Positions 3,101 to 62,800 of a stretch of DNA of 64,000 bases are shown piece after piece. Each line of letters begins with the position of its first letter. Position 1 is the first letter of the stretch. The translations under genes and the position numbers were made by a program. The notes beneath the pieces are model-generated. The model was given only the letters and a program-made list of their open reading frames with translations, ran no database searches and was not told the DNA's origin. Origin of the DNA: Dipteris shenzhenensis (lineage: Eukaryota); NCBI GenBank assembly GCA_047967505.1, contig CM106538.1. One strand, given 5' to 3'.

Positions 3101-4175
3101 GGGGGGCGTCTTGGCCCCTCAATCATATTGCAATTTCCAATGATGTCACTTTGTGTTTAAGGTGTATAAGTCTTAATTCCAGCTTAATTGCAAACTCTTA
3201 AGTTCAAGTATATGTGTTTGGCAACTCGCAATCATTTCATTCAAACGCCTCTGCAAAATCCGTTGTTTGAATTGATAGAAAGCACTGAGTAGTTTACAGA
3301 ATCCTGCGAAGTGTACTCCTGAAGCTGGCCCATGCTTTCAGGATAGCAACCATAAGAGGGAAAGAGGGAGATCTGAGGTGGACTGTGGTGAAAACCCATC
3401 TGGTGCTATGTGTCCGATCCTCTCCTGAAGTGGGCGTGCCAGACTGTATGCATTTGATAAAGAAATCCTTCCAAGGCTCTTGCCCTGGCATAAGTCCTCT
3501 CACAATGACCTTGCAGAGTAAGGCTCTGCAGTGTAGATCCCGGTCGATGATATTCAAAGCCCCTTCTCTTGTAGGAAGAATCAAGGTCTCCCAAGCCACC
3601 CTGGCTGTAACATCAGTTGTGCCATCTAGACCACTCCATAAAAAGTTTCATACGGGCCTCTTAAGGTGAGTGATTCAATCCCTAGAGTGGCACCAACAAG
3701 AGCAAACAAACCATGCTGTGGCTAGAAGAACCTGATTAACCACCACCACCTTGGAAGCCAAGTTAAGTTTGGTTGAGCTCTAGAAAAGGAGCTTTCTTCT
3801 GATGCTCTCCAAGACCAGAGCAAACTGTTGTGAGGGAGAGGTGCCCACCCCAACCTGGCAGCCCAAATATCTGACGGAGACGCCCCTCTGTACCCAAGTG
3901 AAGGCAATATCATTATCCCAATCCGGGGTGTCACCATCACAAATCCAAAAGCCATTGGATTTATGCCAATTAATGTGTGCACTTGCAGCCGTGCAAAATA
4001 AATCCAAGGCTGTCCGGAAGGAAGTGAGTGTCCTGGGGGTGGCATCCAAAAAAACAGCCGTGTCATCTGCCAGCTCACTATGCAGGAGCTCTTCTTCCCG
4101 GCGAATAGGAAGCCTCAGCCCATAAATATGAGCTTGAGATCTAAGGTAGATACTCATAGCTTCCGCCACAAACGA
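130..4175 (-). mobile_element. 5'-truncated plant L1-type LINE (RT C-terminal half and zf-RVT)
   Basis: Minus-strand ORFs contain ADDTAVFL, YLGCQVG, AWETLILPTREGALNI and the zf-RVT motif FWQRLWK...CTRC...ETIQHCLWDC. Flanked by a perfect 13-bp TSD ACAAAGAGCACTT at 117-129 and 4176-4188. Confidence 0.9.
1547..3298 (+). mobile_element. Probable solo LTR inserted in the LINE
   Basis: Non-coding 1.75-kb block interrupts LINE coding sequence, starts TG and ends TTTACA, has TATA-like CTATAAAAG at ~2187 followed by a CT-rich tract. TSD not clean, so the left boundary is approximate. Confidence 0.6.
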
Positions 4176-16200: not shown

Positions 16201-18442
16201 AATTTCTCACATGCATGTGTTTGAATCTCTTGCATATGCACATGTACCCTGTCAGTTGAGGCATAAGCTTGATGATAAGGCCATCAAATGCATTTTCATT
16301 GGCTATAGCTCACAGAGCAAAGGATACATGTTGTTTCAGCCTAATACAAGCAAGGTAATTGTCAATAGAGATATGGTTTTTCTTGAGCATGCCCCTTTAC
16401 CTTGGTTGGACTGTAAAAATAGCCATTAATGGAAGTCTCTGATGTATTTGATTCTCTACCACCCTTCACAGATTCGGATGACACTTTGTAGGGTATGACT
16501 CCAAATGCTTCTACAGCTTACAGCCTCCTCGTGTTGCCAATGTCGAGCCTGATATGCAGCCATCATGCAGTTGATCAGGCGGTTGATGAGGAGCAAGCTG
16601 TCATTAAATAGTAGAAAAAAGTTCCAAGGTGGCTCTTGGATACTCTACGGGACAGCAAGCATGCTAAGCCCTTGGCTGCTTGCACTATAGGTGCACAAAA
16701 ACAAATGCAGGGAAATTGCTTCAGGTTGCTTTGCTTGCTACTGCTTGTAATGAGGAACCTCTTTGTCATAGGAATGCATTTGATAGCAGAGAATGGATGG
16801 ATGCCATGAAAGCTGAGCTTCATTCCATTCATGCAAATGGCACATGGGAGTTGTGTGACTTGCCAGCAGGCAAGCGTGCCAGTGGCACTAAGTGGTCTAC
16901 ACATCGAAGTGGAAAGCTGATGGCAACATTGACCGCTACAATGCCTGCCTTGTTGCAAAAGGCTACTCCCAACAACATGGCATTGACTTTGAGGACACCC
17001 ACTTCACACATTACGACCATTCATTGTGTTCTTCTGTCTTGCATCTCACAGGCATTGGGAGGTCCATCAATTGGACATTAAGACAGCTTTCCTTCACGAG
17101 GATGTAATGGAAGAGGTCTATGTCACTCAGCCACCAGGGTTTGAAATTGCATGTGAAACTAAGGTATGCCGGCGGGAAAAGGCACCGCGGGCATGGTATG
17201 CCAAGATACATTCTTTTTTGCTATGCCTTGGGTTTTAGAACAGGTCTACAGATGCCGCTTTTTATGTCCAGGAGAGTAAATGAGAATTTCTGATTTTAAT
17301 TCTTTTATGTGAATGACATGGGTATCATTGGGCCCGACACAGAAAACTGCAGATTTCAAGGGAGATTGGCAGAAATCATTTGCAATATCAGATTTTTCAA
17401 GTGGCGCTACTATTTGGACATCTAGTTTGCTAATGTTGAGGGGGGGCATAATGATGATTCAATCCAAATATATAGGACAGACTCTCTTTATTAGCAGGCT
17501 GTGGGCTGCCTTATTTACTTATGTCATACTTGGCCTGATTTGCAGTATAACGTTTCCCAGTTAAGCGAATATATGCACAAGCCCAGCACGCAGCATTGGC
17601 AGGCAGTGAAGCGAGTCTTCTGTTACTTGAAGGCCACACAACATTTGGGACTGTTCTATAGTGATCAGTCTTCAATGGATTTGCATGCATTCATAGATAG
17701 TGATTGGGCAGGTTGTTACGACACGAGTGTCTCAAAGTGGAAACTGTTTCATGCTTGGCTCGGTTCAGCAAGGAGTTGCTCTTTCGAGTTGTGAAGCTGA
17801 GTACGGGGTAGCCTTCATAGCCACTATAGAGTGTGTTTGGCTTCGTAGGTTACTTACAGATCTTGATGTCTGCCAGAACTCCAACAGCTAGAGTGCTTCG
17901 GCTGTTGCGTGTAATCTTGTCTTTCATGTGCATACCAAGCACATTGAGGTGCTCTATCATTATGTTTGAGAGCGTGTGTCAGCTAGAGATATACAATTGT
18001 CCTACTTTCCCACGGAGCAAATTTCGTCACAAAGGCTCTACCACGACCCAAGTTTGAGGCTTTTCGACATCCCTTACACTTGGCACCATTTATTACGTGA
18101 TGTTGATCTCCCTATACTATCATAGGTTGCTATATCCATCTTGGACGAATATGTGCAACCCTAATATAGTTTCTAGGTATGCTTGAGATGTATCTAGGAT
18201 ATTTAAGCCATACCATGGAGGAGGGTTTAATAGCACTTAGGCATGGTATGGCCCTGTAGGCTAGTTAGGATTCAGTCACTCTTTAGGTTGATTAATTGGT
18301 CAACTCTTGTGGTTGACTTTGGGGCCTAGATAGGCCACCACATGTACTTTTTCATTATCCATTTGCAAGTACTCTCGTTTCCTCAGCTTGTTGTTTGCTC
18401 CCTTGCATTCCATTTCCATTCCATTGCTCCCTACACCCAACA
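10239..18442 (+). mobile_element. Decayed Ty1/copia LTR retrotransposon
   Basis: LTR 3' ends match (TTGTTGT.TGCTCCC...ACACCCAACA ending at 10293 and 18442). Degenerate Met-tRNA PBS TGTTGTCAGAGC at 10295-10306. gag from 11559 (DRLNGSNYPMW) with zinc knuckle CNYCKKPNHDISEC at ~12400. Integrase from ~15711 (LIHSDVC, PYTPQQKG, KLDDKAIKCIFIGY), RT (HQLDIKTAFLH), RNaseH (DSDWAG, TKHIEVLYHYV), PPT GGAGGAGGG at ~18217, 3' LTR ~18226-18442. Only ~55 bp of the 5' LTR is recognisable. Confidence 0.9.
12585..15710 (+). mobile_element. Truncated Tat/Athila-like Ty3/gypsy insert (LTR, PBS, gag, partial LTR copy) nested in the copia element
   Basis: LTR-like 12585-14141 ending TTCA; PBS TGGCTCTGTTGCCGGGA (14142-14158) resembling the TGGCGCCGTTGCCGGGGA type; decayed gag ~14256-15350 (Gln/Gly/Met-rich, then AATFLKGNALQW...SWVPFKQ); 15353-15710 repeats 13153-13510. 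Left boundary approximate. Confidence 0.75.
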
Positions 18443-33951: not shown

Positions 33952-36024
33952 TAGTTCTTTGGTATGATACTGCTCCTCAGCCAGCTAATCCTCGAGCTGC
34001 TTAAAGTAGGTCTACATCTCCTTTGCCCACTCTTTGTTTTTCTTTGCTATTTGTACACACTGGCCTCTTCAGCTTCTTGGGCTGCAACCATACTTCATTG
34101 TTCATTGGTCAACTATTGCTGTAGCTCATTGCTGTGGATATTGGCCAAGATGCATGATGTAATTCACAGTCACGTCAGTTTTGTTCCCTTGACCTTGCAT
34201 GATTAAGGAGATTTCCATCTTTCGAGCTACATTTGGAACAAGGATCTCTTCTCTCAGTAGCAGCTGAACTACCAGTTCTTGCCACAGCTTCCCATGAAAA
34301 CCTTCCACCAACGAGTAGGGAGAGTAGAGTCAGGATGTCCAATCCCAAAAATCCAAGGCCCTTGCCAACTCTTCCCTCAAATCTTAATATGGCTATACCA
34401 CAGTATAGGCAGAGTCAATGGTAAGTTGAATGGATAGGATGACAATTGAGCAACTAAACCAAGAAATGATAAGGTTGCAAGGGTTACAGACACAACCAAG
34501 GTCAAATGTTAATCCTTCACCTCAGCCCACAGCACATGATTATATCCTTGGTATAGAAGCTCAGCTTCAATTCTGACCTAGACCTACACTGGACCCTTTG
34601 TCCAGCTAGGATCCCAACCAATTACAGGATCCCCTGTCACAGGCTTATGCCCTTGACCAAGGGGAGCCCGAAGTATTTGTCCACAAATTCAGGCTGTTTC
34701 TCTAAAAAGTATGTGTCCATTATATATTCTACACTTATTAGAGTCCTCCATCCACAAGAGAAAGGATCCTCCTATTGTGGTGTCTGTTTTATCAAAATAG
34801 AAAGCTAAGATAAGAGAGAGAGAGAGAAATGTGTCATAAGTGGAATAGGTGAAACAAACCATGCATACTATTTAAGAAGTTCTAAATTCAATGCATTGAT
34901 ACAAAAAAGATTGAACACATTCTTTGTTTTTATTGCAGATGAAAGAGGATAGTTTTGGCTCTAAATATGTACATAGCTTCATAGCAAAGACAATTTTGAA
35001 GCTGCTAGAGGTCTCTTCCCCTTGTCTAGTGCCAAACTGAACAATCCATATAGGAGAGGGCTCAAAAGGCCTTGAGGATCTCCGGGTTGAAAAGAGGCTC
35101 AAAATGTCTCTGTCACTAGCAATTTAGAAGATATTCTAGAAGGTGTTGGTGTTGATGAGCTGCTCGAACAATTCTCGAAGAATGTGGAAGGAGAACCTAT
35201 AGTTTATCTTTCCCAAGCAGAGCTACCACAAAAGCCTGAGCCTCTATGCACAAGGAGGCAAGAACATCAAAGCAACCTGAGCCCAAGCCCAAGCCCATGG
35301 ACGAGGTGGCAAGGACCTAGGACACCAAAGGAGCAAGAGGATTCGATGCATGAGGAGGAAGTACCGATGGAGGATGTGTAGCAGCAGGATGTAGAGAAAC
35401 AGGATGTACAATAGTAGGATCCACAGTTGCAACAACCTGAGCAGCATGTGGAAGATTCTCAAAAGGAGTCTCCACTACAAAAAAGTCAAGAGAGATTCTT
35501 AGCAATAATAGAAAAACAAATGATACTTGTAATCATTTTGTATTAATACATCAAATGTCAACTTTTTTTTTTTGGTTGCAAGTAATACATGGAGTCAATA
35601 GCTTTGTATTATCTGAATTGTTCTATTTACAATGTCCTTGCATTGAATTTTGCTTTCACTCCTTTGAAGTATCTGCAAAAATAAATTTTTAGCAATATGT
35701 AAATGTATTATGAAAATGTAAAGAGAATCAATTAGGAGAAACACAGGGTGGAAACCAACTTACTTTCCTATTGTTCAAAATGAATGAAAATTCTTTACAG
35801 ATATTGTTGTCAGTCTCCATAATAACATCATTGCGTAACAGAGAGAGAGTGCAGCATTGTCCTAGTGAAATGGATGTTAGAAGGATGCTATTCTTAATAA
35901 CATTTATTTCAATTATTGGACTTTGAGATCATCATGCTATGGTGAAAACTTGTTGCTTTGATATGAGGTTTTTTTACTTTAAAAAATGTATATGTTCCTT
36001 TGGAAGTTGGTTGGGACTCACTAC

Positions 36025-37987
36025 AAATGGTAGCAGCCTTTCCTTCAAGACTAAGTCCAAAGGCATCAACCATTTCACCCTCACCTAATGTACCAAAAGT
36101 TTCGCAGATTTGCTCGAATCTCTCTACATGGGAGACAGGATCTCCTTCTCCTAGGAACTCGGTAACCAATTTGGCAAATTGAATTGTGACTGGTCTACTT
36201 CTTGAGACATTATGGTCTCTGTGAGGGATAGCTAGTGTAGCCGCGGTTGCCCCCCTTGCTAAGTCATCCACTATAATTGTCATTGCTTCATTGGAAAACA
36301 TTGTTCCAGAAACTGGAGCAGGTGTCAGATCATGAGCAGGTGGAGGTGGAGGTGTAGGGAAGGAACCACTTGCGACATATATTGGTGCACCAAATGGATC
36401 ATAATAATGAGGACCAGTTGGGGTATTCATAGGTGCAACCAAAGGAGTAGAATTACCTTGTGGTGTGTAGGATGTAGCAAGTGCATGTTGCACAAACGAA
36501 GTTGGCCCTACAGAGCTAGAAGTTGGTAGACCACTAGGTATGAAAGTTGTTGGTCCAAATGTCACATTCCCTCATGGGTTAGGAGCCAAATTCACAATAG
36601 GACTTGTTGTCACAACAGGTGTGAATGAGTTCTGCATTGGAATAGGTTGCAGGATTTGTATCACTGATGACCTAGCCATATGATTTGCTTGTGGAAACAT
36701 GGTTTGAGAACCTAGCACAGCAGCATCTAGATATCCCTCTTCCATTGGGGTACTATGAGTGTTATTCCAAAGAAATCAAGATCCTTCCATGGACATTTCA
36801 GTTGTACCAACTACCGGAACATGTGACACCAAATTACTCTCTAGATGGTTTCCAATTGGGATACTTACACCAAAAGTTGGGTTAGAAAATGGTAACTCAG
36901 TCCCTGACATCAGCACATAGGAAGCCTGACTGGAGTTAGATTGAACATTCGGAATGCATGTTCTTGAGATTATAACAGTTGTAGGATCTGAAGTGTTCCC
37001 ATAAATTTGCCTTAAAGGATTATTAACTTATAAATTTGGATTTGATAATGGCACTTGCCCAAATGCTGGTCTTAGTGATTGAGATACTTGATATTGCCCA
37101 TGTGAATCAAATGTATCATATGTGATAGTCATAAGGGTTGGCATTTGATCTACGGTGCTGAATCCTATGCTGTGTTCCGGGAATCGTGGCCTTGGAATAA
37201 TGTTAGGTGCATGACCTCTAATCATTGCTTGAATTTGAGGTGCAGTGGGCAATTGCAATCTTTTCAACCTCATTATCTCCTGATCCAATTGTTTGTTTGT
37301 CATCCCATCGATCCTACCAGGCCAAAAGTCATCGTTCATTTGAACTATGGGCTTTGTTGTCATAGGGTTTCCTCTATATTGGATCGGATCAGATTGTGAT
37401 GTCATCCTTCTAGGCATCCTAGAACTTCTCTCTAAAGCAAGAGGTTGGGATTGTGCCGCAGTGGTTGGTGGTAGCCCACTTGACCTAGCAAAGGGGTTCA
37501 CAAATTCCCCTGATTCATTTTTACCAAACCAAAGTATAGTTGATAAGGCCTCCCTTACTCCAACTGCAGTAGATGGAGTGGGTGAAGGTGGAGCTACTAT
37601 TGTAGATGTAGGAGCACTAGTAGATATAGGATCAAACATTTCCATCCTATCACGCTCCATGCTAAAGGAATCTTCAATGCTCAAGGACTCTGCATAAGAT
37701 GGTCCGTTCACTGGGTAAGAGTTATGGCCCGAGATTCCTGACTCAGTCGAAGCCACACTTGGCACATAGCTTGATGCTATGTGGTTTGAAGTGCTCTCTT
37801 TAGGGATGGATCTGCTCCCAAGGTCCTTCCTAAGCATAATTGCATGTATGGATGTCAGAAGTGTTTTAGTGCACTTATATCGACTAAGGCTTGCCCTTAG
37901 GTTAGAATTTAACAAAAAGTAGATAATTATGAAAATTGTCAATTTTAAGATTATGGGTGAGAAATTTGAAGTTTTTGATGGCACCAA
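36025..37987 (-). pseudogene. gag: Ty3/gypsy gag (long P/S/T-rich N-terminus plus start of capsid domain), truncated
   Basis: ORFs 37028-37987 and 35909-36565; capsid-like EFLGEGDPVSHVERFEQICETFG...DAFGLSLEGKAAT, with similarity breaking at ~36025. Lies downstream of the LTR and PBS on the same strand. Confidence 0.75.
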
Positions 37988-38205
37988 TGCGTCTGAACGG
38001 CCAAAAAGCCTTAGATTTGACCTTTGGATGGTTGAAAATGGGTGCCAAAGGATTAAGTTATCTCAATTTGGTCAATTTTAGTGAGATTAGCTATGTCAGC
38101 AAGATTTTGCAAGTCAACGGATCTTTCAAAGGAGGTAAATAGCACAATTAATGGGAATAACCTTAGTGAGGGGGCGAAAATTTGGTTTAAACATGAAAGT
38201 TCATT

Positions 38206-40199: not shown

Positions 40200-41920
40200 A
40201 ATGCTCACTTGGTAGTAGTGGGTACAGTAATATGATGCTAATGTAAATCGAAAAGCTTGGCATGCTAAATAATTTCACATGGATTTCCTTGTCAACCAAT
40301 ACTAGATTCATGGTTATATCAACGATGTTATGGCCATTACAAAATAACTCATAAGGTAAGATAAACAACTTAATTGATGGTTCTTCTCTTATAATTGCAT
40401 AGTCTGTCATATCCTCCCAGCTCCAAGACCTCAAGCAAAGCATCGCTGATGCCTTGCCAACCTTTTGGAACTTAGGTAAAACATTGGTACCAAACTTGAC
40501 ACATCTCAAGCCTTAAAGTCCATCAACCTATAAGTCTATCACCATCCATTAGATGCAAGACGTGTTGGGAAACACATGCCCCAACCCTACAACATGGATA
40601 GGAGAGGTTGCAAGGAGGGGGCACCACATGGCGTAGGCCTTTAAGTGCCACTTAGCACCTCACAAAGAATGAAATATAGAAGTTCACCATTCATAATTCA
40701 TAATAAATATGGTTGATGCATAATGAAGTAGAATGCTTTAGAAATGGCAAAATGGTAGTCGACCAATTGCACACATAGACATGACATTCATCCAATGCTT
40801 GGGAAAGATGCATCCAACAAATTGATTCAAGATATCATTTGAAGCACAATTATAACATAAATAAGCCACCTCGCTTGACGAAGAAAAGGGGTTTGCATTC
40901 CACAATAAAATAATATTAGGATTTGTAAAGCATAAAGAAACCAATCAATAACATCCTACATGGTATGAGGTGATGACCTCATGTGAAATCAATGGAATCC
41001 ATCAAACTTGTCGTCAAGATTTAAAAGCATGATGGTTCATATATTACGAAGGAAAGCATGTAGTCCAAATTTCAACTACCCGTAGGAGCACAACTCCCTA
41101 TCCAAACACAAAGATTTTTGTTTAGTGTCCTAACTGCTAAGAAAAAAAGATTGATGCTACATATTGAGCACCCCCCCAAACACAAAGCCAATGTGTGCAC
41201 AAACAATGTTGTGCTTCAAGATTTCATTGATGTTAAGCTAATGTAAAACATACATTTGGTTCCTTATTCACCATCACAAATAATATACTCGACAATGAAT
41301 GCTTGGCAAATGGACTGAAAATAAAAAGAATCAACCTCTATATAAAAAAGAATGCAACTAAATCAATTTGATAAAATGGGACAAAGCGAGCCAAAAATTT
41401 TAACAATAAAGAGTCAAATGGTTTTGTTCATGCCTTTGTCACTAATCATGCAGCAAGAAAGTAGTGCCCATTTCAATTATCAATGGAATTGTGCTATTGT
41501 GTTCTCCTCTTGCCTCCACCTTGGAATTTCTCTAGGTAAGAAACTCCATTATGCTTGTTGCATATAATTTGCAATGGAGCTTCTTAGGAGCTTTCAACTA
41601 CCTCTATAAGCTTGATTGAAATCGTTTGTTGCGAAACGAAGAGCTTACTGCATCTTTAGAGTAGCATTTCTCCCTTTGGATCTGAATAAAGGAGCAATGC
41701 CATACGAATCTACAAAAAGTAGATGCAAGGTTGTGCTCATTAATCGAAGATCTCCTTCAAACTCGTATGTGATGGACCCAAATTGTGTCCCACTCACTTG
41801 CCCATCTTTTGCCACTTGAGGTTTTACAGTCAATAGTAACATCTTTTGGGTCATCCACAAATCATGGGGTGTTTTGCTACGATCTGTTGAAGCTAGAATG
41901 CCTCGTTGATGCAATGAGAG
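40200..41920 (-). pseudogene. Highly degenerate hAT-family transposase relic
   Basis: KFGTNVLPKFQKVGKASAMLCLRSWS resembles the hAT dimerisation motif (FG..P.LQK.A...SAS.CERNWS). FTNPNIILLWNANPF...EV resembles the LNP motif region. Confidence 0.5.
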
Positions 41921-43193
41921 AATTGATGATCCATATAATCTAGTACTCTTAGTATAGAATGATTTCGACTTCCAATGATCATGTTGTGCTGCTTCTCTCC
42001 AACTTAGATGTCTTCCAAGACGTCTCGTGAGTTGGGAGACTTGTGCCTAACTCGGCATATAGCTTATCGTTCATCTCCATCATCCTGGGATCACCATCTC
42101 CACCGTAACATGCTGAATGAAAATGCACTCGATAAATGTCGATAATACACTCGGTAAACAGAATGATGTCCAGAAAAATGAAAATTGGAACAACTCAACG
42201 TTGGACATTCCTATAATTTAATTACCTCACTATTAGTGACCAAAATAAGCTAGCGATAGCGAAGATGCTCATAGACTATGAGGATGAGCTCGTAAAAGCA
42301 GAGAGCGGGAATTGTTGCTGAAAAAGATACTGCTCATGGACCATCATGATGATCAAACGCGGAGTGTGCTAGGTGTGCAATGTATTGGAGATCCTTCGAC
42401 AGACAATAATGGCCGCTTAAACAATCCATTTGCTGTGGAGAATTCCGCCATGGCTAGAGGTGGCCTTAGCATTCACTTCCACCTTCATGTCAACCCACTA
42501 AGTGATGGCGATCACACCGAGTGATGGTGATCACTTGCCGACAGTGAGGCTGAAACCATCCGAATACAAAGATGCCTCTGCTAGGATATGGCCCCCTTCA
42601 CCGAGGCAACTTCCGTATTAAAAATGAACATCAGCATCAATCCTCTGCGTTCAAGTTCTGGCAGGGGCGGGGAAGATACTGAATCATCAGCTGTAGGAGT
42701 TGTCAAGCAACTGCACTCTCCCTTGGATTCCTGCTTCATTCGAACGTTTATGATGGGTGAGAGGAAGCTGCAGAAATCTCTTGTGCACAGAACACATCTT
42801 TGATTGCGTAGCTCGATTGGATCTCCCTTTAGGCTTTCTCTTGGCATTACCTCTCCCCTCAGAGCTCTTTTGTCTTTCAAAAATGTGTTCGCACCTACCT
42901 CGCCCAAGCGTCGACTCCACCTTGGCCCTTTGTCATTTCTGGCTGGTTGATGTGCATCATGTGTGGATTTAACGGCCGCGGCTGCCGAACTCCCAAAGCC
43001 AACAAATTCAACAAAAGCGTGTTTTGGTAATGATCGATTGCTTCTTGGCAGATTTTCTTATATGATGATTTTGAGCTTCTCGGAGTTGAAATCTTAACAT
43101 TGACGACCGGGAAATGCCACCCATTGAGTGGTAATCTTTTAGTTCCAGAGCTTACCAAGGGGCACTAAGGGGGAGCTTACTAAGGGGCACTAA

Positions 43194-43584
43194 GGGGCTT
43201 AGCACATGGGAAGAAATAGGATGGGAATGGGAAAAGGTGGTCCCATGCATATTTCTATCCTATTCCCATCCCACCATGTGCTAACAAAAAAAGAACTAGG
43301 GATGGGTTTAGGAGGAAGAGGACACATGGCATCATTTCATGTGTTTAAGAGGTGGGGACCTTGTGGGAACAAGGACACATGTCATCCTTCCATGTTTTTG
43401 AATCCCTAAAAAAGAGGAACCCATTTTGGCTGCCACAGTCTAGAGGCCATGGTCCAGGATGGGAGAAAAAGTGGCTACTCCCATTCTAAATCCATCCTAG
43501 ACCACTTGGTGTAGGATGGGAGTAATGATGACAAAAAGATTCCCATTCTAAACCCATGCTAGCCCCATCCATGTGCTAAGGCGC
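43194..43584. mobile_element. Tourist/PIF-Harbinger-like MITE
   Basis: TIRs GGGGCTTAGCACATGG and CCATGTGCTAAGGCGC, flanked by TAA/TTA; ~390 bp non-coding. Confidence 0.75.
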
Positions 43585-43689
43585 TTAGTTATAACTAAGA
43601 TGACAGCCTCCGTAAATGTAGTCCAAGCATGTAAATGCCAGAAGGTGAGGGGAGATCAAGATGATCTCTGGTATGCTTCCCTCCCAAAT

Positions 43690-46545
43690 ACTCTTAGAAT
43701 ATAGAGACTGTTTTGCATGGAAACATTCTGATATGAAGGGGGTCCCACCTAAAGTAGTTCAACATACCATACCCCTAGTAGATGATGCAAATCCACTCAG
43801 GCAATGACCCTATCCGATGAACCCAAAGTATGCCTTGATGGTTAAAGAAGAAATTCAAAAGCAAATTGATGCAGGTTCATTTATGAGATTGAGCACACGG
43901 ATTAACCCAAAGTATGCCTCAATTGTCAAAGAAGAAATTCAAAAGCAAATTGATGCAGGGTTCATTTATGAGATTGAGCACACGGATTGGGTCTCACTAA
44001 TTGTAATTGCCATGAAAAAGAATGGCAAAATGAGGGTATGTGTTGATCTAAAAAAGGTCAATGTGGCTACCCGACGTGACCATTACCCTTTGCCCTTTAC
44101 GGAGCATGTCTTGGAAAGAGTGGCAGGTAGGGAAGCTTATAGCTTTCTAGATGGTTTTCTGGTTATAATCAGGTGTCCATAGCACCTGAAGACCAACAAA
44201 AAACTGCCTTTGCCACTGAATGGGGAGTGTTCGCCTCAAGGGTCATGATTTTTTGCCTTAAAAATGCACCGGCATTTTTCCAGAGGTTAATGATCACGGC
44301 ATTTAAAGATTAGCTACAAGACTTCCTCGAAGCCTTTATAGATGATTTGTGTGTAAATTTGAAATGGGATGATCATCTAAGAGATCTTAGGTTGGTATTC
44401 GAGAGATGTAGACTTTACAGAATCTCTCTAAACCCACATAAGTGTCAGTTTTGGGTTAAGCATGGAGTGATTCTTGGTCACATTGTGTCTAAGAATGGGA
44501 TCTCCACAGATTATAACAAGATCAAGCTCATTCTCGAGCTACCACCTCCAACAAACCCCAAGGGTCTGCAGCGATTTACAGGTCATACTATCTATTACCG
44601 ATGATTCGTTATATTTTATACTGAAATAGACCATCCTCTATATCGCTTGCTCGTAGTATTTGTCTAGACCAAGGAATGCTAAAAGGCCTTTGACACATTA
44701 AAGCTTATGTTGGCTACCACGCCAAATTTGAGGACCCAAATTGGGATTTGGAATTCCATGTCCATATAGATGCTTCTAACTATGCCATTGGGAGTGTGTT
44801 GACACAACCTGGTGAACATGATCTAGATTACCCTGTGTACTTTGACACATTAAAGCTTATGTTGGCTACCACGCCAAATTTGAGGGCCCCAAATTGGGAT
44901 TTGGAATTCCATGTCCATATAGATGCTTCTAACTATGCCATTGGGAGTGTGTTGACACAACCTGGTGAACATGATCTAGATTACCCTGTGTACTTTGCCA
45001 GCTGTCAACTTAACTACCACTGAGAAATTATACTACCACTGAGAGAGAAGGATTGGCCATGGTTTATTCTGTCAAGAAGTTTCGACATTATCTATTGGCC
45101 AATAAGTTTGTTTTTTATGTTGATCATCAAGCCCTTCTCTATTTAGTGAACAAGCCATGTCTTACCAGAAGGATTACCCGTTGGATGATTATTCTGTTGG
45201 AATTTGTTTTCATGGTTTGATTTCATGATTATTCTGTTGGAATTTGATTTCATGGAGTGGATGATGAGATTCCTATTGCCCCCTTATTTATGGTGGATTT
45301 AGTGCCTAAATGGGCTGACGATGTCTGTCATTTTCTTACCAATGGGTTTCCCTAGGACCGACACTTGTAAGGACTCTGCACCCTATCAACTTATTGTTGG
45401 TCAGTTGTACCACATGGGTAAGGAACATATTATGCGGAGGTGTGTAAGGGAAGATGAGTTTATGGAAGTACTTGAGGAAGCACATTCTGGGATTCCTAAC
45501 AGTCCTTTTGCCATAGATATTACAAGTCACAAGGTATTGCAGGCCAATCTATGGTGACCAACTCTTTTTTTAGATGCAGCTGAATTTGTTAAACGATGTG
45601 ATCCTTGTCAAAGATTAAAGATCCCACAGAAGGAAGATATGATGCCACTTATGGGCATCCTTACATATCAACCATTTGAAAAGTGGGGGATAGACTTTAT
45701 AGGTCCCATAAGTCCAACTGCCAAGGGAACAAGTGCACGCTATGTTATTGTGGCAACGGACTATTTCACGAAATGGGTGGAGGCTAAAGAAACAAGGAAG
45801 GCTGATGCTAGGGCAACAGCCAAGTTTTTGTATGAAAATGTGATTTCCCATTTTGGATGTCCATTACAGATAGTTGGTGACCGTGGCACACACTTCCTAA
45901 ATGAAACAATTAGGATATTGCTAACTGACTTTATGGTCATTCATAAAAAATAAACAGCGTATTATCCACGTTGCAATGGTCTTGCTGAAAGCTTGAATAA
46001 GACCATGTGTTTGGCCATAATCCGCACTATCGAGGCTAGTCGAACCGATTGGGAACATAAGCTTACAACAGCCCTTTGGGCCTATAGAATTGCATACAAA
46101 GTGTCCACCAACTATACCCCTTTTCAATTGGCTTTTGGGGTAGAGACCATCATGCCAATGGAATTTATAGTTCCAAGTCTTCAAGTGTTCCAAGTCTTCA
46201 AGTGGCGGTGCACCATAGGTTAGTAGACTCTGAAATGTTTGAGACGCTAATCCAGCTTGAAAGGTTGGATGAAACCCGTTTAAGAGCTACTTATGGGATG
46301 AAAGTGGAAAATTTGCACCGCAAGAAGTGGTTTCATAGACGCCTCAAGAACAAGGATCTTAAGGAGGGCGACATTGAATTGATGTACAAAGCGCAAACTT
46401 AAATATCAAGGCATGGGACCCTATTGAGTGACGAAGATAACACCTCAAGGAACATGTAAAATTGCAACCCTTGATGGTATTGAGCTGGAAAATTATATCA
46501 ATGGTAGCAAACTAAAACGCTACTACGGTCCTCTAACACGCTTCA
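43690..46545 (+). pseudogene. pol: Ty3/gypsy (non-chromovirus) pol: RT-RNaseH-integrase, decayed
   Basis: YRDCFAW, KKNGKMRVCVDLKKVN, DHYPLP, YSFLDGF, FIDD, FHVHIDASNYAIGSVL, NYTTTEREGLAMV, PFEKWGIDFIGP, DYFTKWVEA, DRGTHF, LWAYRIAYK, INGSKLKRY. Confidence 0.95.
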
Positions 46546-46719
46546 AACCTTCAAAAGATACATGAAGAAAAGGAAAGTTGAGTAGATGAAAAAAGAGGCC
46601 GTATAGGAAGCAAGGGATAGAAATGCCAAGCTTAGAGGAAAAACACCAATGACTATCTACAAGATAACTCTTAACGAAGCGGAGGCTGAGGATGATCAAA
46701 CAGTTGAGGCTACAAGATT

Positions 46720-47070
46720 ATCCATTAGTTTGCAAATCAAGGGAAGAATCCATTCTATTCCAGATGCACTTATAGATCTAGGGGCTAGCCCCCATAACTT
46801 CATTTAACATGAAGTTTGGGAACAATTTAGACATCATCTGCTTCACCCTACCCCTGCCACAGCAAAGGCTATGAATGGGTAGATGGTAAATGTTATTAGT
46901 TTTACAAATATGCATTTTGTTATTAACGACCGCTCCGCCGAGAGCAGATTCTATGTTATGGCATAGGAACTTCAGAAGAGAAGGTCATCCTAGGGAGATG
47001 TTGGTGCTTTCAAGTGAGCTGCCAGGTTAATTGGCAGCGACGCTCTGCAACACTTGTTCAAGACGGTCGC
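46720..47070 (+). pseudogene. Retropepsin-type aspartic protease domain located downstream of integrase
   Basis: Manual translation gives LQIKGRIHSIPDALIDLGASPHNFI*HEVWEQF...AKAMNG*MVNVIS...FVIND...RFYVM, then after a frameshift KVILGRCWCFQVSCQVNW. Putative catalytic Asp codon at 46775-46777. Confidence 0.8.
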
Positions 47071-48759
47071 ACAATGGTGGTGCCATTACTCTCCTCTGAA
47101 CCCACAACCTCTTCATCCCCTATTACAAACAGCATAGAGTTACCAGCACATGCCGACACGGTACAAGCATCCTCTTCTTCTTCATCACAACAACAACCCT
47201 CACAAGGTCAAGTACAGAGGAGGAGAAATAAGGACACGAAGCAACAGTGGGTGCCATGAAATCTATTGCATGCCCAAGGATATTATGAGGGACAAACTCA
47301 GGTATGGGTTCCAAGGCAAGCCTACGAACCGCCTCCAAATCCACAGAGAACACCTAGGTATAATAGGAGATCACGAAGAAGGAATATTCCAGTCAGGAAA
47401 GTGCACTATAGGTGGGTTCCAAAGAATCTTCTTTGAGCACAAGGATACTATGAAGGCAATACCTATATCTGGGTACCAAAGCTACAAGTGCATAACTCCA
47501 CTACAGTCCCCAGAACTCAAGTGAAACAAGAGCCAAAAAGACAACAAAAGATGGAATGGTGGCCTAAGTCTTCCACAGCCAATACTCAGGGCCATTCATC
47601 TTCAAGTAATTCACAAAATGACACTAGAGCAGTCACACAAGAACCTGCTCCAACTGACCAAGGAAAGAACATTCTAATTGAGAACCTTGCAGTAGATATT
47701 GCATCAACTTCACATATAGTGGTTTGGCAAGGAATCACCAGTACAATGCTAGAGGCTTCAACAAGCTACCTTCCACAACCTCTTCCCTTAAGTGTATCTC
47801 AAAAACCAACTCTGGATGACACACCACAAGAACCGGTCTCCAAAAAAGAGGCAGTTATTCCAGAACCTATCTCCTTAGCAAAGGAGGAAATCTTGACGGT
47901 GAGCTTACTACCAACGGAGATCATTGCTCTTCTAGTTAGGGTTACATTTGAAGAGTCCACTGCATCAACAAATTCTCAAAGACACAAGGTGACAGCCAAG
48001 GTCAAAAGTACTCTCAACAACTACTCATCTTGGTTGTCCACCAGGTACTCCAACCTTCGGACCTCTTCAATAATTTCTACAAAGTCCGTGGCACTCACAT
48101 CATGCATTCAGTTGTGGCAAGAATTAGGTGATTAGTTTTGCATGCACAGACAAGTCCCCTTGCTCATTTAGGTGAATACATACAGCATAAGTCCTAGGTG
48201 AAAATAGGGTTTAATGCATATGCTCACTCAAACATCATCACTCCTAGAGTAGGGTGCACACACCATTCCATAATCACATCATCAGGTGCCCCTATTTCAC
48301 TGCTCAAAAGCACCACTTGGCATATCTAAGAGGCATGTGTTTACACCACAAGGAAGCATTTGTACAATAGTCCATGCATAGTCTGACCCTCATATCAACA
48401 CTATTACACCATATGGGGATGCCTTACTCACTTGCACACCACTACTCATTAAGGCCTGGTCACACCTTAAAAAGAGGCACAAATGCATAAGGGAGTTAGT
48501 CTCCACATATTTCACATGGGGATCACATAACAAGTTGGGAAATATCATAGGGTACATGCACCAAAGGCAGGATGGTCATAAGCTTGTCCTTCATTTTGCA
48601 TCATTCTGAAGCACTTCCAAAATTTGTGTGCTTGGCATAACTCAATGTATCTGATGCTCTAAGAGTCCAAATTCAACTCTAAAAGTTTCCACTTTGTCCA
48701 GGCACTAAGGGGAACCACATGGGCCCATCAAACCATCAAAATTTGCAATTTCCCAAAAT

Positions 48760-50900
48760 CTTGCAAACATGGCCTTGTCAGCAAAGTGTTGACTTCCCCA
48801 TGTCAGCGTGATTTTGCAAGCCAACTCCGTTTTGCACCAAACTTGGCGAGGGGCACCTAGGTCACATCATGAGGTGTTGCGATGCACAAGAATGCAAAAA
48901 GAATAGTCATAGGGCCCACATTACAAAATATCACTGACATGGAGCCCATGTTAGCGTGATTTTACAGATTGGCACATGGGCAACTCCGTTTTGCACTAGA
49001 CTTGGCGGGGGGCACCTAGGTCACATCATGAGGTGTTGGGATGCACAAGAATGCAAAAAGAATAATTGCATGGCCCACACTACAAAATCTCATTGACATG
49101 GAGCCATGTCAGCGTGATTTTGCACATGGACACATGGGGACCTTCAATCCAACTTGTCAGGGTTGCATCTTCACCGAAGGGTCGCAAGCACTCACAGTAT
49201 CAATTTTTAGCACAAAATTCATTGCAAAAGTGCCTAAAGTGTGAAATCTCACTGACATGGCCCCATGTCAGCAGCTTTGTGCAAATTAGCCTCCAAAAAG
49301 AAAAACAAGTGCACAAAAAGCATGAATCCATCACTCAGAGGCTATATGTACACCTTCGGGCCAATTTGGGCACTTGAAAAGCCAAAAAAGCCATAGAATG
49401 CAAAATCTCGCTGACATGGCCCCATTTCAACGACTTTTTGCATTATCACTAGGAAAGCATGCTTTTCATCAATTTTTGTTGCCAAATCAGCATAACTAGA
49501 CCCCAGGGAGCTGCATCAACCAAAAATAGCACTTGAATTGTCCAAAATCCTGCATAATGCAAAATCTCGCTGACATGGCCCTATGTCAATGAATTTTTGC
49601 ATATCTAGCCAGGCTAGTACTTCCAGCCTACGAAAGACTCCAGTTTTTCTTGCACATGCTCCATAACGCTTGTGCACATCATTTTGACCGAAAACTGGCA
49701 CTGTAGAGCTCCAATTGCAAAATCTCACTGACATCAGACACAAGTCATCGAATTTTTGCACAGAACCCCGATTCATTAAAAGTTTGCCATCAGCAAGGTT
49801 CATTCATAATCATCATCATCCGGTTCACTGCCATGATCAATTTGAGCCATTCCGACACTTCACAGGGTCCCCTTTGCAAAATCTCACTAACATGACCCTA
49901 TGTCAGTGAATTTTTGCAAAACATGTCGGACAAGGGCAGACAGGTGCTCAAATGGTGGCTAGGACTTGCTAACAAACTAAAATTAGGTTTTGGCAACTTT
50001 TTGTGGCTCCGGGCACTCTACAAGGTCACGGGTGCAAAATCTCACTGACATGGACTTATGTCAGCGGATTTTTGCAAAACATGTCCGACAGGGGCCGTCA
50101 AAAGTTCAAACGGTGGCCATGACTTACACATACTCTGACCTCGTGAATTTGCAACGTTTTGCGGTACCAACTACTTCATAGGGCCCCATCAGCAAAATTA
50201 CGCTAGTGTGATTTGGCCAATTTCAGCATTTCCAACCGCCTCCAAGGAGCCCCGGCAAAAATTACGTTGACATGGAGCTGATGTCAACAAATTTTTGAAA
50301 TTAGTCTTGGTCAAACCTCAAACGGCACTCAAATCAGTCACATCAGCACCACTTATGGTTTTGGCATCAATTTGGCATCTTTCGGTGGTTCTAGGCAAGC
50401 TCCAGCATCCCTTATGCAAAATCACGCTAACATGGAGCTTATGCGAGTAGATTTTTGAGATTGGGCTCCGACGTGGGTCTAGAAGTGCCAAAAATGGTCA
50501 AAACGGCATCACAAGAGGTGGTGCTAGTGATTTGGCATCTTCCAGTGCCGACAACATGCCTAGGGGGGTCCCAGTGATGACATGTAGCTGATGTTAGCGG
50601 ATTTTTGAAAATCTACCTCCAAAACAGCTCAACAAGTGCCAAAGATGGTCCATATCAGAGATATGATTTGAGCATGCAGAGAGGGGTCCCGGCAAGAACC
50701 TTCCTGACATGAAGCTGATGTCTGCGAATTTTTGCATATTGACATCTCAGGGTTCCAGATTTTTCTCCAAACGGGTTCAGGTACATCTCCAACTCATTGG
50801 CAGCTTCCAGGCTCAACCGTGATCAAAATTGACATGCTGCAAAATTTAGCTGACTTGGCCATGTTCGCAGATTGCTGACTTCCTCATGTCAGCAAATTGT
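48760..50900. repeat. Phased array of ~44-bp imperfect palindromes (period 158-159 bp)
   Basis: Consensus TGCAAAATCTCACTGACATGG-n(1-4)-(C/T)ATGTCAGCGGATTTTTGCA starting at 48922, 49081, 49240, 49399, 49558, 49716, 49875, 50033, 50191 (partial), ~50254, ~50414, ~50565, ~50691, ~50838. Confidence 0.92.
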
Positions 50901-51082
50901 TGACTTAGCCTCTCCCATATAAACCCCCTCTCATTCTGCAGATTTCACAGTTGGGGACAAACTCTTGCAAATTTTTTAAAGGATTCCAAAGTCATCCCCC
51001 TTTGCCATGCAGCTCCCCTCTGCCTTCCATTGCCTCCCTCTTGCCTCCTTCTTGCATCCTTTTTCCCCTCCTCTCCCCCACC

Positions 51083-53343
51083 ATGGCCACATCCCCCAGC
51101 GAATCTTCCATTGCTCACACCGACCACCATGACGAGCAAGCACATCTTACTGCCTCTTCCAGGGTCCAAACACTGGATGATTTTGTCTCCGAAGAGGACT
51201 CCCAAGAAGATACAGCGGAAACAGGACCTTCAAGCAAGAAGCAGAAAGTCAAGTCAAAGCAGCCGATCCATCCGGGCACAGAGTATAGTATCTCAAAGAC
51301 AACAATCTCACCATTGGGATATGATTGGGTAATGCAGCTCAGGGGAAGATTCATACATTCAGTGTATAGGAATGCTGAAGGGAAAGATGTCAAACTCATG
51401 TATCACACAGCGCAGTGCTACAACGTATTGCAAGATCCCGGGGTACTTCCATGGTTACAGGATATGGGTCTACAGCCCTTAACGGAACGTCTGCCCTGCT
51501 ACTTAGATCTGGATCTTGTCGCTCAATTCCTGTCCACTTACACTTCACAAGGCACATTCGCTCTAATAGACCAGAATGGAGACAAACGCACTTTTCACTT
51601 CAACATTGATATGTTACGAAGTTCTTTTGGATTTCCAGTCGTTGCAGACAAATGGTCCTGGGCAAAAGGACCTAAACTAATATCATCCCTCGAAGGAGTG
51701 GTTCATTGGGAAAGAGAAATATTCAAGGGCGGGGTACCATTCTCAGAAATATTACGGCCGGAGCTGATAAAGCCCGCTAGGGTGATCAAATTTCTACTCC
51801 AGGTAGAATACACGAATCACCATACCGTCGTTAATCCCAATTTCTTGGCAAAGCTGTGCAAACTGCAGCCCACTACCACAAATTGGGCAGACCTTCTCTA
51901 CTCCCAGCTCACTTATACTTGCCTCAAGGACAGAAAGAGGTTGGGCAATCCCATGCTCATCATGCTAATTGTGCAGCATTGCCTGGAACTTGCTCATACA
52001 GGATTTGGAGCAGCGGATAAAACCTTTGGCTCTGCAGGGATACCAATACAGATCAATCTAAGGGAAATTATTCCGCTAACCTCAAAGAGGACAGGTTCAA
52101 GTACAGCACAAGAAGAGAATCTAGGAGAAATTGGCTCAGAGATATGGCAACAGGTTATTGAAGAATGACAGCGAGACAAGGAAGTGTTCTACAGTCACCC
52201 CTCAACAGCCTCCCTTCCCATCTGAGCAAGCACCTCTCCCCACGGAACCACAAGTGCAGACTTCGGTGGCCCCGGGCTCAATTCCACACTTTGAATTTAG
52301 CACCGATCTTCCAGATTTCCAGGAGCTGCCCACAGATTCAACTCCAGCTGGCCCCACTCCCTCATCTAGCGGACATACTTCTATCCCTTTAGGCATCTCT
52401 CCATATGTGGATGCTATCAACTTTTGTTTGGGTCCAGATTACAACTTAGCGAAAAGATATTTGCAGTTGGTCCAACAGAATCATGCATTGATCCATCAAA
52501 CAGAATCTCAATTCATAGATGCTCTGAACCTCATGACCTTCCAACTCACGCATCTTCAACAAAGGCATCAGGATCCAATCTACCAGCAGCAAACCCTAGC
52601 CTCCCAAGCCTATACTCTTGCACAACAGGCCCAACACTCTCTCTTTCTACAGAAGAATGAAAGGATGATGGCTGAGGACACTGCCAAAGAAATGATAGCT
52701 CGGGAGAAACTAGCAAGAGAGGAGCTCCAAGCAGCTAGATAACAAATTACCAGCCTGCAGAGTGAACTTTCAGATGCGAAGTCTACCATCCAACGACTTG
52801 AGTCCGAGTTACAGGAACTGAAGATCACATGGCCAGTACTTTGGAACAGCTCAGAGCAGATCACGACATTGCATTGCAGGCGCACCATGACGATCAAGAC
52901 ACGGATAACAAGATCATCAATGATCTCCGTCAATAGGTAGTGCAATTGACACGAGATTCTCACATTTATTGTTCGGAGATGAAATCTTTACAGTTCGTGC
53001 CCTCTTCGTGCCTAGGCTTCCACCAGAGGTCAATTCAACTCAAGGAGAGGAATATGATCGGCTCATCGCATCCACCACCGTCATCGCCTTCCATGCACTT
53101 GACCCACGGACCGTCGAAGGTAGTTTTAATTTTTTCTATTCTGCACTTGTTTGTTCCTCGGTCCAAGATCACCTCAATCTCTCTGAAACACTCCCACCAC
53201 ATGCCTTCCAACTAGTCCTAGATAAGCAATCACCGCACACTCATCCAATTCTAGCACTAGCTTTCTTTATCTTCAAATGGCCATTTTCAATTCGTCATAG
53301 CCTCCTCCTGACACTTGGGATAAAGCACGTGGGAAGGGTGTAA
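51083..53343 (+). CDS. Extra retrotransposon ORF2 (Athila env-like / plant-transposon-protein-like N-terminal domain plus coiled coil); open to 52168, then frameshifts and stops
   Basis: 405-codon open frame 50951-52168 (likely ATG 51083; TATA-like CATATAAA at ~50917); NLS-like SKKQKVK; LDLVAQFLSTY...TFHFNIDMLRSSFGFP. Continues in 52131-52742 and a heptad-rich stretch (REELQAAR*QITSLQSELSDAKSTIQRLESELQELK), then 52969-53343. Confidence 0.7.
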
Positions 53344-59888: not shown

Positions 59889-62800
59889 TGGGCACTTCCA
59901 AAACAGGTGTCGGAGATCCTCTAGCACCCTGCTACATATGGGGCAGACGGGATTTATCTACACTCACTTCGCCAGCTTCAACTAGACTGGCAGCCATTGG
60001 TTCATCAACTTCCAGAGCAGGAATTTAGCCTTGCCACAGGTGCATCCTTTCCACACGCTTTGAGCCTGGCTTTCCACCACGTAGGACTACATCTTAGCCC
60101 CCATCTTATGTTTAAACCACTCGCGGGGTTGTCTTCACTAAGCAGTTGCCTATAAAGGGTTTTAGACGAGAGCTTGCTTAGCTTGGTTTTCCCTATTGTC
60201 CAAAGCTGCTCTCTTGCTACGGGGGACATAAGACTCCCAATCCGCCTTGCTTTGGTTCCAAAGATCCTTCCATCGCTGCAAGCCCTTCCTGTGAAGGCTC
60301 CGGGCTTTCTTGATGTCAATAAGAGTTTACCTTGATCTCGGTGAGTTAGCACCCACAATTTCGATGTTCTCCCTTTCTTTGTTGCTCTCCAATAAGACCT
60401 CCTCTCCATCAATTGGTATCAAAGTTTGGTTGAGTGAAGCCAATAAGGAGACTGTAGCATTGTAGTGTTGCTGTGCCAAGAGACCAAACTTGTTGCATGG
60501 AGTCTCAAACTGCCCGTGGGCTACCCCTGGGAGCTGTATTTTGACATATACTAGCTCGTTTTTATTGTTTTAACCTTATATATCAGGTTGCCTCGACTGT
60601 TCTAGCAATCTATTGCCTTGTTTGAGCGGGGGAGGGCTCCCAAGGGATGTAATGCATCTTCCTCCGACTTCCTATTTCTGCCCATAGGAAGCCTCTAAAC
60701 ATCGCTTCGATCTCAAGCCACTGGGTTTTTTTGAAATGCCAAATGGAAGCATTGTACATGGTTGAAGCCACGAGATGTTGGATGAGAAGGCATCGCATGT
60801 TCCAGCCAAGGCACACTCCATGCCATGCGTGAATCTTGGTTCTCACCTTGTCTTTGAACCATTCAAAACATTTACCTGAGGGTGACTCCGATTCCCAACG
60901 GGGCACCCAAGTATCTAACAATTTCCCAGGCTCTTGAGATGATCTAAACACCTACATACTTCAGATCAGGGGACGTCCGGATAACAAATGTTTTGGACCA
61001 ATTGCACCTTGATCTTGATGCCATGCAGAAAATATCGATTGCTTGAAGAAGGGAGGTGACAATGTCTGGGTCTTCTTGTGTGAAGGAGATTGTGTCGTCG
61101 ATGAACAGTTGGGTGCACAGCTGGCTGCCAGAGGGGAGCACAACTCCCTTGATCGCCCCCTCTAGCCCCCTAGCTTCGATCATTAAAATAAGCGGGACTA
61201 TGCACATTGTACAAAGAGAAGCGGGGCTATGCGGCACCCTTGTTGGACGGACCTTTTTAGCTCGAATCTGCCAATTGTACTGCCGTTGACATAAAGAACT
61301 GCGCCTGCATTACCTAAAAGGTTCTGCACCATTCTGGAGAAGTTATGGCCAAAGCCAAGGCACTCTAGCGTGGTTAGGATGAAGTCCCACTTGATTTTGT
61401 CGTATGCTTTCTCCAGGTCAATGCCAAACATGATCATCTTGAGATGAGGTGGTTGCATAATTTAGTGCTACTCCAAAATTCAGAATGTTTTTGTAGATGT
61501 CTCTACCTTTCATGAACCCTATTTGTTCTTTGTCGATGATGGCTGAGTAGATGTCCCTGATTCTGATGGCCAACACCTTGGCCAAAATTTTGTAAGAGGT
61601 GTTTAGCATGGTGGTGGGCCTCCAGTCGCCCACTTTCACTCTCACTTGCCGCTTTGGGAAGAGCTTCATGAGGTCGCAGTTCACGTCCTCAGAGAGCGAG
61701 CCTTTAGCTGCTGCTTCATTTGCCATGCTGGTGAGGTCCGGGCCTATCACGTCCCAGAAGGCTCTGAAAAATTCTACATTCAGTCCATCTGGCCCGGAGG
61801 CCTTCTCGTTTGCTAGAGCATTAAGTGCTTCCTCTAGCTCGTCCTCACTAAAAGGTTTGGCCAGCTGTTCTCTGTAGAAGTCTGACACTCGACCGCCCAC
61901 ATCCTTCAGGGCTTCTTTAGTGCTTTGCCACCACGCTTTGTCCTAGGTGGCTTCTTCTCCTACTACTGCACTTAGTCTTTCTTAAGGACATCTGTTATAT
62001 TCCAGAACTCTGTAACCAGCCGGCCCTCAGAGTCTTGCACCTTATTGATCCTCCCCTACATCCTATTTCTCTTGATTGATTGGAAGAAAGTTTTGGAGGG
62101 ACAGTCGCCCACCGCTAGCCATAGTTGCCTACTCTTTAGGCAGATTGTTTCTGATTCTAGTACCTCCTTATCATGGAGTGCCACATCTGCTTCGACCAGT
62201 AGGGTGTTGAGGATGCGATCCTTGGGGGCTTCACAATTCGCTACACGAAGTGTAGCTCTAGCTGCCCCGAGGCCGGTGAATCTATCTTTCATGGCGGCTT
62301 TGGCGACTCTGTCTTCATCTTTCGCTAGAGCCATAACTCTATGAATCACAGAGTCCCATCTCTGTGTTAAGTCCGTGGCCCCCTCCGCCACCTCCAGCCA
62401 TGCCCTCTTGACCTTCCTGTAGAAGACTTTTTAGGATAGAGGCTTGGAATTAAATGTGAACGGGATGTCGTGCGACCTGCCAATGGGATCGAGAACCTCT
62501 AATAGATTGGGGTGTGATCTGAAATGGCCGTGGTGTAGATATAGCCACCCTGCATGGGACTTCTCAGCCACCACCCCTCCTCAAAGGCGTAGAACCGGTT
62601 GAGTCTTCCAACCCTGTAATCGTCACCTTTTCTGTAATTATCCATGTGAACTCTTGCCGCCCCTCCTGTAGGACGTCTTGGGCATCCACCAAGCCCCCTT
62701 TACAACATAGATCCTCCCAGGCTTCCCACTCGTTTGTTGGAGATCACTGTGCCTTCATGCGATCTATCTTCCCCACTCTCTGTGAAGTTCCGGTCGCACC

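Follow-up and report, generated by a model that had tools for sequence, protein, structure and literature searches.

The Pol polyprotein of canonical Ty3/gypsy (Metaviridae) elements has the order protease (PR), reverse transcriptase (RT), RNase H (RH) and integrase (INT). Major adaptive steps of long terminal repeat (LTR) retroelements are marked by extra Pol domains, such as the targeting chromodomain, env, and the second RNase H found in Tat elements and in retroviruses; Athila-type elements carry extra open reading frames (ORFs) with membrane-protein features. An additional RNase H (aRH) after INT is reported for gymnosperm TatIII in the REXdb paper, which also gives eORFs as lineage features (PMC6317226), and a 'post-integrase' aRNH is described in PMC13468544. 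Here, we have analyzed a stretch of 64,000 nucleotides from Dipteris shenzhenensis (contig CM106538.1 of GenBank assembly GCA_047967505.1; hereafter the window), in which a degenerate Ty3/gypsy element on the plus strand carries a retropepsin-like domain behind its INT. This domain is referred to as PR2, and a protease located before RT as PR1. The element (43691-48135) quite probably represents a dead, 5'-truncated copy from a lineage that has no chromodomain and whose Pol runs in frame from INT through a linker and PR2 into a tail.

Compared with the canonical Pol, the usual order of RT, RNase H and INT is preserved, and in the only full-length relative, a database ORF labelled P0089, RT comes after gag, a zinc knuckle and a protease with DTG; what differs is that the same ORF goes on past INT into another retropepsin domain and a tail with repeated motifs. 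As with the chromodomain of chromoviruses or the additional RNase H of Tat, an extra post-integrase domain appears to be fixed in one lineage, but the domain added here is a retropepsin and would duplicate a function that the element already has. Athila-type env-like or extra 3' ORFs also add coding capacity between INT and the 3' LTR; however, they are separate and heterogeneous, whereas PR2 is in frame with INT and has a predicted protease fold. Among solved structures, the best matches to PR2 are the RVP domain of DDI1 and ASPRV1/SASPase, which have the same D-[ST]-G-A loop and form homodimers through it (for PR2, the dimer is modelled). Both are host proteins in their own right, in which the partner domains are different, whereas PR2 is fused behind INT in a transposon polyprotein.

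A protease domain behind integrase in the window and in database relatives

A first-pass annotation of the window, made from the letters of the sequence, had pointed to a retropepsin signature about 200 bp past the INT end, with no LTR or gag in between, a charged linker before it and a long Q/S/T/P-rich tail after it. All of this was borne out. The post-integrase protease region was confirmed to be present as first described, neither an LTR nor gag lies between the INT end (INGSKLKRYYGPLT, 46497-46538) and the linker, and the tail frame stays open to 48135. The linker sequence MKKEAVxEARDRNAKLRGK (46586-46642) aligns with the MKKEAREEARQRAAKAK... linker of three database relatives (P0024, P0011 and P0044). 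Within PR2, the catalytic block ALIDLGAS (46766-46789) is followed by AKAMNG (46862-46879), RFYVMA (46946-46963; FYVMA at 46949-46963), VILGRCW (46984-47004) and CQVNW (47020-47034). VILGRCW lies 70 codons past the triad when the frameshift is allowed for and provides the hydrophobic-hydrophobic-G-x-x-[WF] block of retropepsins; in the alignment of relatives, L129 was nearly invariant and W133 invariant (P0011 numbering).

INT and protease were found as one ORF in four database sequences (P0024, P0086, P0087 and P0089), in each of which the INT end, linker, protease and tail share one frame. P0024 (358 aa) begins in the INT C-terminus (..GPYVI..LDGE..INGSCLKRFHEPL) and continues in frame through MKKEAREEARQRAAKAK.., ALLDSGADVNVM, VILGRSWM..C.FNW and RWVPKTWLQAQNFYKGN..IWVPK, with LLDSGAD as its protease motif. 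P0086 (1004 aa) contains Integrase_H2C2, rve and RVP (612-709), followed by a tail with six WVPK-type motifs. P0087 (686 aa) contains the C-terminal part of INT, Asp_protease_2 (232-323) with DTG, and the tail; around the junction it is the closest sequence to the window (KITPQGT..ETLDGIE..LNGSKFKRYYDPLT), and it runs on into ALIDTGLSHNLL and VILGRTWM.

The most complete sequence is P0089, a single uninterrupted ORF of 3234 aa that contains GAG, PR1 (DTG), RT, RH, INT, PR2 (DSG) and the tail. Its 5' part comprises Retrotrans_gag (505-595), zf-CCHC (840) and Asp_protease_2 (1295-1385, AILDTGAG), and these are followed by RVT_1 (1883-2043), RNase H (2103-2232), Integrase_H2C2 and rve (2456-2629) and RVP (2878-2973, ALIDSGAD). 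On the basis of tblastn, positions 43691-47487 of the window are collinear with residues 1805-3133 of P0089, with identities of 54-61% in RT, 58% in RH, 42% in INT (residues 2432-2818, E=1.3e-91) and 23-53% in PR2 and tail; relative to P0089, the window has no added sequence between GPLT, at the end of INT, and the linker. Taken together, these comparisons indicate that the INT-PR2-tail order is inherited and is a feature of the family.

Some further features of the relatives were also observed. P0089 and P0086 each have two Integrase_H2C2 stretches, that is, a duplicated zinc-finger region at the INT N-terminus. In P0089, PR1 and RT are set apart by about 500 aa of charged spacer, and about 500 aa precede gag. 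The C-terminal end of P0087 is an RT-like fragment (..PFGIYNAPASFQRY..), probably a read-through into another element.

The homology of the window region to these sequences could be measured directly. Eight intact relatives, but neither the window nor P0057, went into a family hidden Markov model (HMM), which was searched against a set of 2807 window ORFs and three added sequences. The frame-2 read-through, with its stops written as X, was matched at E=2.1e-18 (HMM positions 10-135, from the linker to FYV), and the ORF at 46927-47256 at E=4.5e-8 (HMM positions 130-185); the two matches jointly span the whole PR2 domain. No further window ORF was significant with the family or tail HMM, and when the window was searched with the region by blastn and tblastn, no second copy was detected. 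A phmmer search of 1.84 billion representatives with the 403-aa read-through found 83 proteins at E<=1e-3 (best 7e-15), most of which align to query residues about 100-250. With the same read-through and longer proteins, a word-index search produced 6546 candidates, of which not one reached E<=0.01; it yielded relatives once intact relatives served as queries.

Predicted fold and dimer of PR2

Several relatives could be recognized as retropepsins by Pfam. The RVP cutoff (20.7) was passed by P0024 (23.2), P0011 (22.9), P0086 (21.3) and P0089 (23.3 bits, a whole-protein score, with no stretch listed as passing alone), and the Asp_protease_2 cutoff (24.3) by P0011 (26.9), P0029 (24.8) and P0087 (29.6). 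When a profile of 24 relatives was compared with the Protein Data Bank (PDB), Retroviral-like aspartic protease 1 (ASPRV1) was matched at 2.3e-7 and DDI1 at 0.04. The ESM Atlas returned for P0024 only weak generic retropepsin leads, with scores up to 0.78, under the lead threshold of 0.9.

Fold and dimer were modelled on the intact relative P0011, not on the broken copy of the window. In the AlphaFold2 model built from the 24-relative alignment, block-mean pLDDT was 79-97, mostly 94-97, over residues about 41-160, and the model also contained a helical linker and a low-confidence tail. A Foldseek search of the PDB with this model placed DDI1 RVP domains first (E about 1e-8, target-normalised TM 0.72-0.81, 15-21% identity), and the proteases of EIAV, XMRV, foamy virus and HIV came next. 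Thus, the PR2 of this relative is predicted, from a high-confidence model, to have the retropepsin fold.

Retropepsins act as homodimers with their two triads facing. A homodimer model of P0011 residues 36-172 scored 0.72, compared with 0.00 for the best of three controls, with at least 93% contact agreement between runs and partner pLDDT of at least 81; of the solved same-chain pairs, 21 of 30 reached the pass mark, as against none of 23 single chains. The modelled interface takes in residues 56-62 (LLDSGAD), and its closest contacts are residues 58-60, the D-S-G loops of the two chains.

Catalytic motif and possible function of PR2

In the window, the position of the retropepsin triad D-[ST]-G is occupied by D-L-G-A (46775-46786), where DLG is encoded by GAT CTA GGG (46775-46783). 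The first-pass annotation had attributed this motif to either decay or an inactive domain. Examination of the 12 sequences covering the motif revealed that the catalytic Asp was kept in all of them and that 10 had D[ST]G: DSG in P0011, P0024, P0027, P0029, P0044, P0045, P0081, P0086 and P0089, and DTG in P0087. The remaining two, the window and P0057, had DLG. P0057 and the window fall into one sub-group (WC[YF]Q / DLG), with TLIDLGANNNFISQEVW against ALIDLGASPHNFIxHEVW and MVLGRTWCYQVNRQIDW against VILGRCWCFQVSCQVNW of the window, and the two are 33% identical over 66 aligned N-terminal residues. The motif is thus real, and because P0057 shares it, an inherited trait of the sub-lineage is likelier than private decay of the window copy. 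Most simply, an ancestor of the sub-group exchanged Ser/Thr for Leu and kept spreading, in which case catalysis by PR2 would not have been needed in that sub-group. The triad position taken by Leu lies centrally in the modelled dimer contact, so PR2 of the DLG sub-group is probably catalytically dead or weakened, with processing presumably left to the canonical PR1.

As for elements that are intact, PR1 presumably handles the normal maturation of Gag-Pol. PR2 would sit behind INT on the helical linker and would probably dimerise like other retropepsins, its D-S-G loops meeting at the interface. It might cut locally, at the INT/PR2 or PR2/tail junctions, and so release the tail from INT, or it might aid maturation of the polyprotein; alternatively, it may merely pair two integrase-bearing chains. 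We tentatively consider that a diversified Ty3/gypsy lineage, comprising at least 83 clusters at 50% identity, may have fixed the order GAG-PR1-RT-RH-INT-PR2-repeat tail with PR2 as a working, integrase-tethered retropepsin. Such a PR2 could dimerise two Pol chains and cleave or regulate the basic W[VI]PK/AQGYY tail, which may in turn guide integration; or it could pair in cis with PR1, so that one polyprotein would hold a complete two-lobed active site.

It seems somewhat doubtful that PR2 is a pseudo-protease throughout the lineage, namely a dimerisation or scaffold module on INT that never cuts and keeps D[ST]G for the interface only. The retention of Asp in every sequence covering the motif and of D[ST]G-A in 10 of the 12 is the pattern expected of an active enzyme. 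On the other hand, a non-cutting module would be consistent with the persistence of DLG in two diverged members, with the triad residues being the closest contacts in the modelled dimer, with the availability of PR1 for processing, and with Pfam scores of PR2 (21-30 bits) well under those of PR1 (41-43 bits).

Origin and position of the second protease

Within P0089, PR1 and PR2 are 24% identical over 101 aa, a low value that marks PR2 as an old acquisition or duplication rather than a recent copy. A captured host gene, DDI1-like or another retropepsin-like cellular protein, is an unlikely source of PR2 and its tail in place of a retroelement protease. Although the top fold matches are cellular DDI1 RVP domains, and the best Pfam model for P0044 is the DDI1-type Asp_protease (24.0 bits, under the cutoff of 26), most members score better by sequence on gag-asp_proteas, Asp_protease_2 and RVP. 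In addition, PR2 is matched at E 1e-7 to 1e-3 (small database) by the P0088 protease and by PR1 of P0089, and no UBL or UBA domain was found alongside PR2.

The first-pass annotation had left it undecided whether the post-integrase protease is extra or relocated, and had stated that the normal PR position is missing at a rearrangement breakpoint. The latter proved correct, as neither three-frame reading of 40500-43830 nor tblastn with P0089 residues 1-1900 detected a PR1 upstream of the window RT. With regard to the former, the presence of PR1 upstream of RT together with PR2 after INT in P0089 indicates that PR2 is additional there, not relocated. For the sub-group of the window itself, 'extra' is an extrapolation from P0089, because the 5' half, upstream of about 43691, is missing. 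A relocated protease, in which the sole protease of the window family would follow INT and none would precede RT, would fit the lack of any protease upstream of the window RT, but the upstream part itself is missing (the match to P0089 sets in abruptly at its residue 1805, window position 43691, beside a 400-bp inverted-repeat block) and the only full-length relative carries both proteases, which makes relocation very improbable.

Chance juxtaposition, in which a protease-bearing fragment of another retroelement would have inserted or recombined downstream of a truncated INT at this locus, is scarcely credible: the locus is otherwise rearranged (the cut at about 43691, an opposite-strand gag-like piece at 36035-36181 and internal tandem duplications) and the window offers no other copy for comparison, but four independent database ORFs share the INT end-linker-PR-tail order in one frame, contradicting the idea of a nested fragment whose other copies would be without a post-integrase protease, and the window tracks P0089 with nothing extra between GPLT and the linker.

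It should be noted that several points weigh against the preferred reading, an inherited in-frame INT-linker-PR2-tail Pol whose PR2 is an additional retropepsin. Pfam found nothing for the protease region in 18 ORF pieces and two read-throughs (stops as X), even at E<=10. No retropepsin model matched the window copy, which is formally the outcome that the first-pass annotation had named as speaking against its proposal; this silence reflects decay and not absence of the domain, and the intact relatives are recognized by Pfam. The tail is unmatched in Pfam, PDB and ESM Atlas, the best PDB sequence match of the tail-only P0012 being at E=0.7. P0089 is the only full-length ORF with both proteases, and the reading of PR2 as extra and not relocated rests on this sequence, which is 42-61% identical to the window over RT-INT. 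The other relatives are predicted ORFs of 74-1004 aa, known from protein sequence alone and with unconfirmed element boundaries. DLG in two decayed sequences that are 33% identical could represent convergent decay and not shared ancestry. Finally, the dimer score may reflect model memory, because retropepsin dimers are textbook structures, and protease activity, cleavage sites and dimerisation of PR2 remain predicted.

Layout, tail and decay of the window copy

The features of the element are listed in Table 1. Pfam matched RVT_1 (ORF 44314-44601), RT_RNaseH, RT_RNaseH_2 and rve in the usual RT-RH-INT order within the degenerate pol at 43691-46538. Neither the window pieces nor P0086, P0087 and P0089 gave a Pfam match to a chromodomain or an additional RNase H. 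Gag and a protease upstream of RT are absent from the window copy, truncated at about 43691, and flanking LTRs were not detected, as there was no long direct-repeat pair within 36000-58000 and none in a blastn self-comparison of the window.

Table 1 Features of the Ty3/gypsy copy, with positions in the window
Feature	Position	Strand	Evidence and remarks
Reverse transcriptase	43691..44760	+	Start of element, 5'-truncated; tblastn with P0089 residues 1805-2132, 54-61% identity
RNase H	44694..45337	+	Pfam RT_RNaseH_2 3.2e-21, RT_RNaseH 2.6e-17; 58% identity to P0089 residues 2172-2288
Integrase: zinc-finger remnant, DDE core, C-terminal module	45372..46538	+	Pfam rve 2.5e-9
Charged linker, integrase to PR2	46541..46700	+	Covers family HMM positions 10-50
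PR2, post-integrase retropepsin-like domain	46700..47060	+	Family HMM; tblastn with P0087 residues 49-342; alignment
Basic, Q/S/T/P-rich tail	47061..47570	+	phmmer matches, tail HMM
Rest of open frame, part of 232-aa ORF 47437-48135	47571..48135	+	No relatives, no Pfam match

The tail of the lineage is basic, K/R-rich and predicted to be disordered, and it bears 1-6 copies of a W[VI]PK / LL-AQG[YF]Y-G motif. In the window, the motif W-V-P-x-N-L-L-x-A-Q-G-Y-Y-E-G-x-T-x-[VI]-W-V-P occurs twice (47242-47319 and 47407-47481), MEWWPK follows at 47551-47568, and the tail HMM gave matches at E=2.4e-12 and 3.2e-5. These short conserved motifs look like docking motifs, although any function of the tail is a guess. 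For the rest of the frame (47571..48135), no relatives were found, and no real phmmer match extends past query residue about 250; the single protein matching there, P0083, is repetitive and unrelated. This part may represent a C-terminus specific to the lineage, or else a 3' untranslated region open by chance.

The window copy is a dead, non-functional fragment, with several stops and frameshifts and without gag, PR1 and both LTRs. The frame shifts right after GPLT (about 46540) and changes a second time inside PR2 (about 46950-46965). In-frame stops between the INT end and the end of PR2 are located at 46583 and 46604 in the linker and at 46805, 46880 and 46964 in PR2. The tail frame (46927-48135) has 403 codons and only two internal stops, TGA at 47257 and 47434.

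Two tandem duplications were observed further upstream in the same copy, one in RT at 43816-43988 (84 bp x2, 93% identity) and the other in RNase H at 44688-45000 (153 bp x2, 98% identity). Each of them repeats a protein stretch; for example, PNWDLEFHVHIDASNYAIGSVLTQPGEHDLDYPVYF is present twice. Microduplication after insertion or an artefact of assembly may account for them.

Genomic surroundings

The window consists of repeat-rich eukaryotic DNA, in which Pfam was also run on all 204 other ORFs of at least 70 aa. Directly upstream of the point where pol is truncated lie a 25-bp tandem repeat (43148-43197) and, after it, a MITE-like block (43189-43589; about 400 bp) that is full of GGATGGGA/TCCCATCC palindromes and has 37-nt imperfect inverted repeats at its two ends (43189-43225 / 43553-43589). 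Downstream of the pol-tail ORF, at the expected position of a 3' untranslated region, there is a degenerate tandem array (about 48750-50900) with a unit of about 159 bp and a recurring CTGACATGG..CCATGTCAG palindrome. An intact open frame of 419 codons (50909-52165, plus strand) directly follows the array; it is far longer than the chance ORFs of the window and has no Pfam match at E<=0.001.

On the minus strand, 35912-38062 contains two long open frames (344 aa and 220 aa) that end in a gag-like stretch (window 36181-36035), which is 45% identical to P0089 residues 463-511 and has no protease after it. These frames may be the 5' part of the Ty3/gypsy copy itself, or of a sister element, that has been displaced or inverted. 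Other retroelements in the window include an unrelated second gypsy RH-INT at 4160-6000 (plus strand), a copia element at 11692-17235 (plus strand; Retrotran_gag_2, SH3_retrovirus and RVT_2), a LINE remnant with zf-RVT at 523-960 (minus strand) and another RVT_1 at 61201-61942 (minus strand). The second gypsy showed no post-integrase similarity, and among the ORFs of at least 70 aa Pfam revealed no other window retroelement with a similar post-integrase region.

Implications for Ty3/gypsy elements

No description of a second protease after INT was found in the full-text literature, a scope outside which most subscription journals and the Repbase notes fall, and an earlier description is possible. 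The accessible parts of PMC6317226, PMC13468544, PMC10508981, PMC5408684 and PMC8775202 do not describe a post-integrase protease. According to PMC6317226, the REXdb survey took an unexpected domain order, or a domain present in multiple copies, for a likely misprediction and dropped such elements. Lineages with duplicated or misordered domains may thus go missing from reference libraries and be mis-annotated as nested insertions.

A second, integrase-fused retropepsin would be a new case among the extra Pol domains of LTR retroelements. It raises the questions of whether one element needs two proteases, whether PR2 may control integrase or the assembly of the intasome, and what the tail binds.

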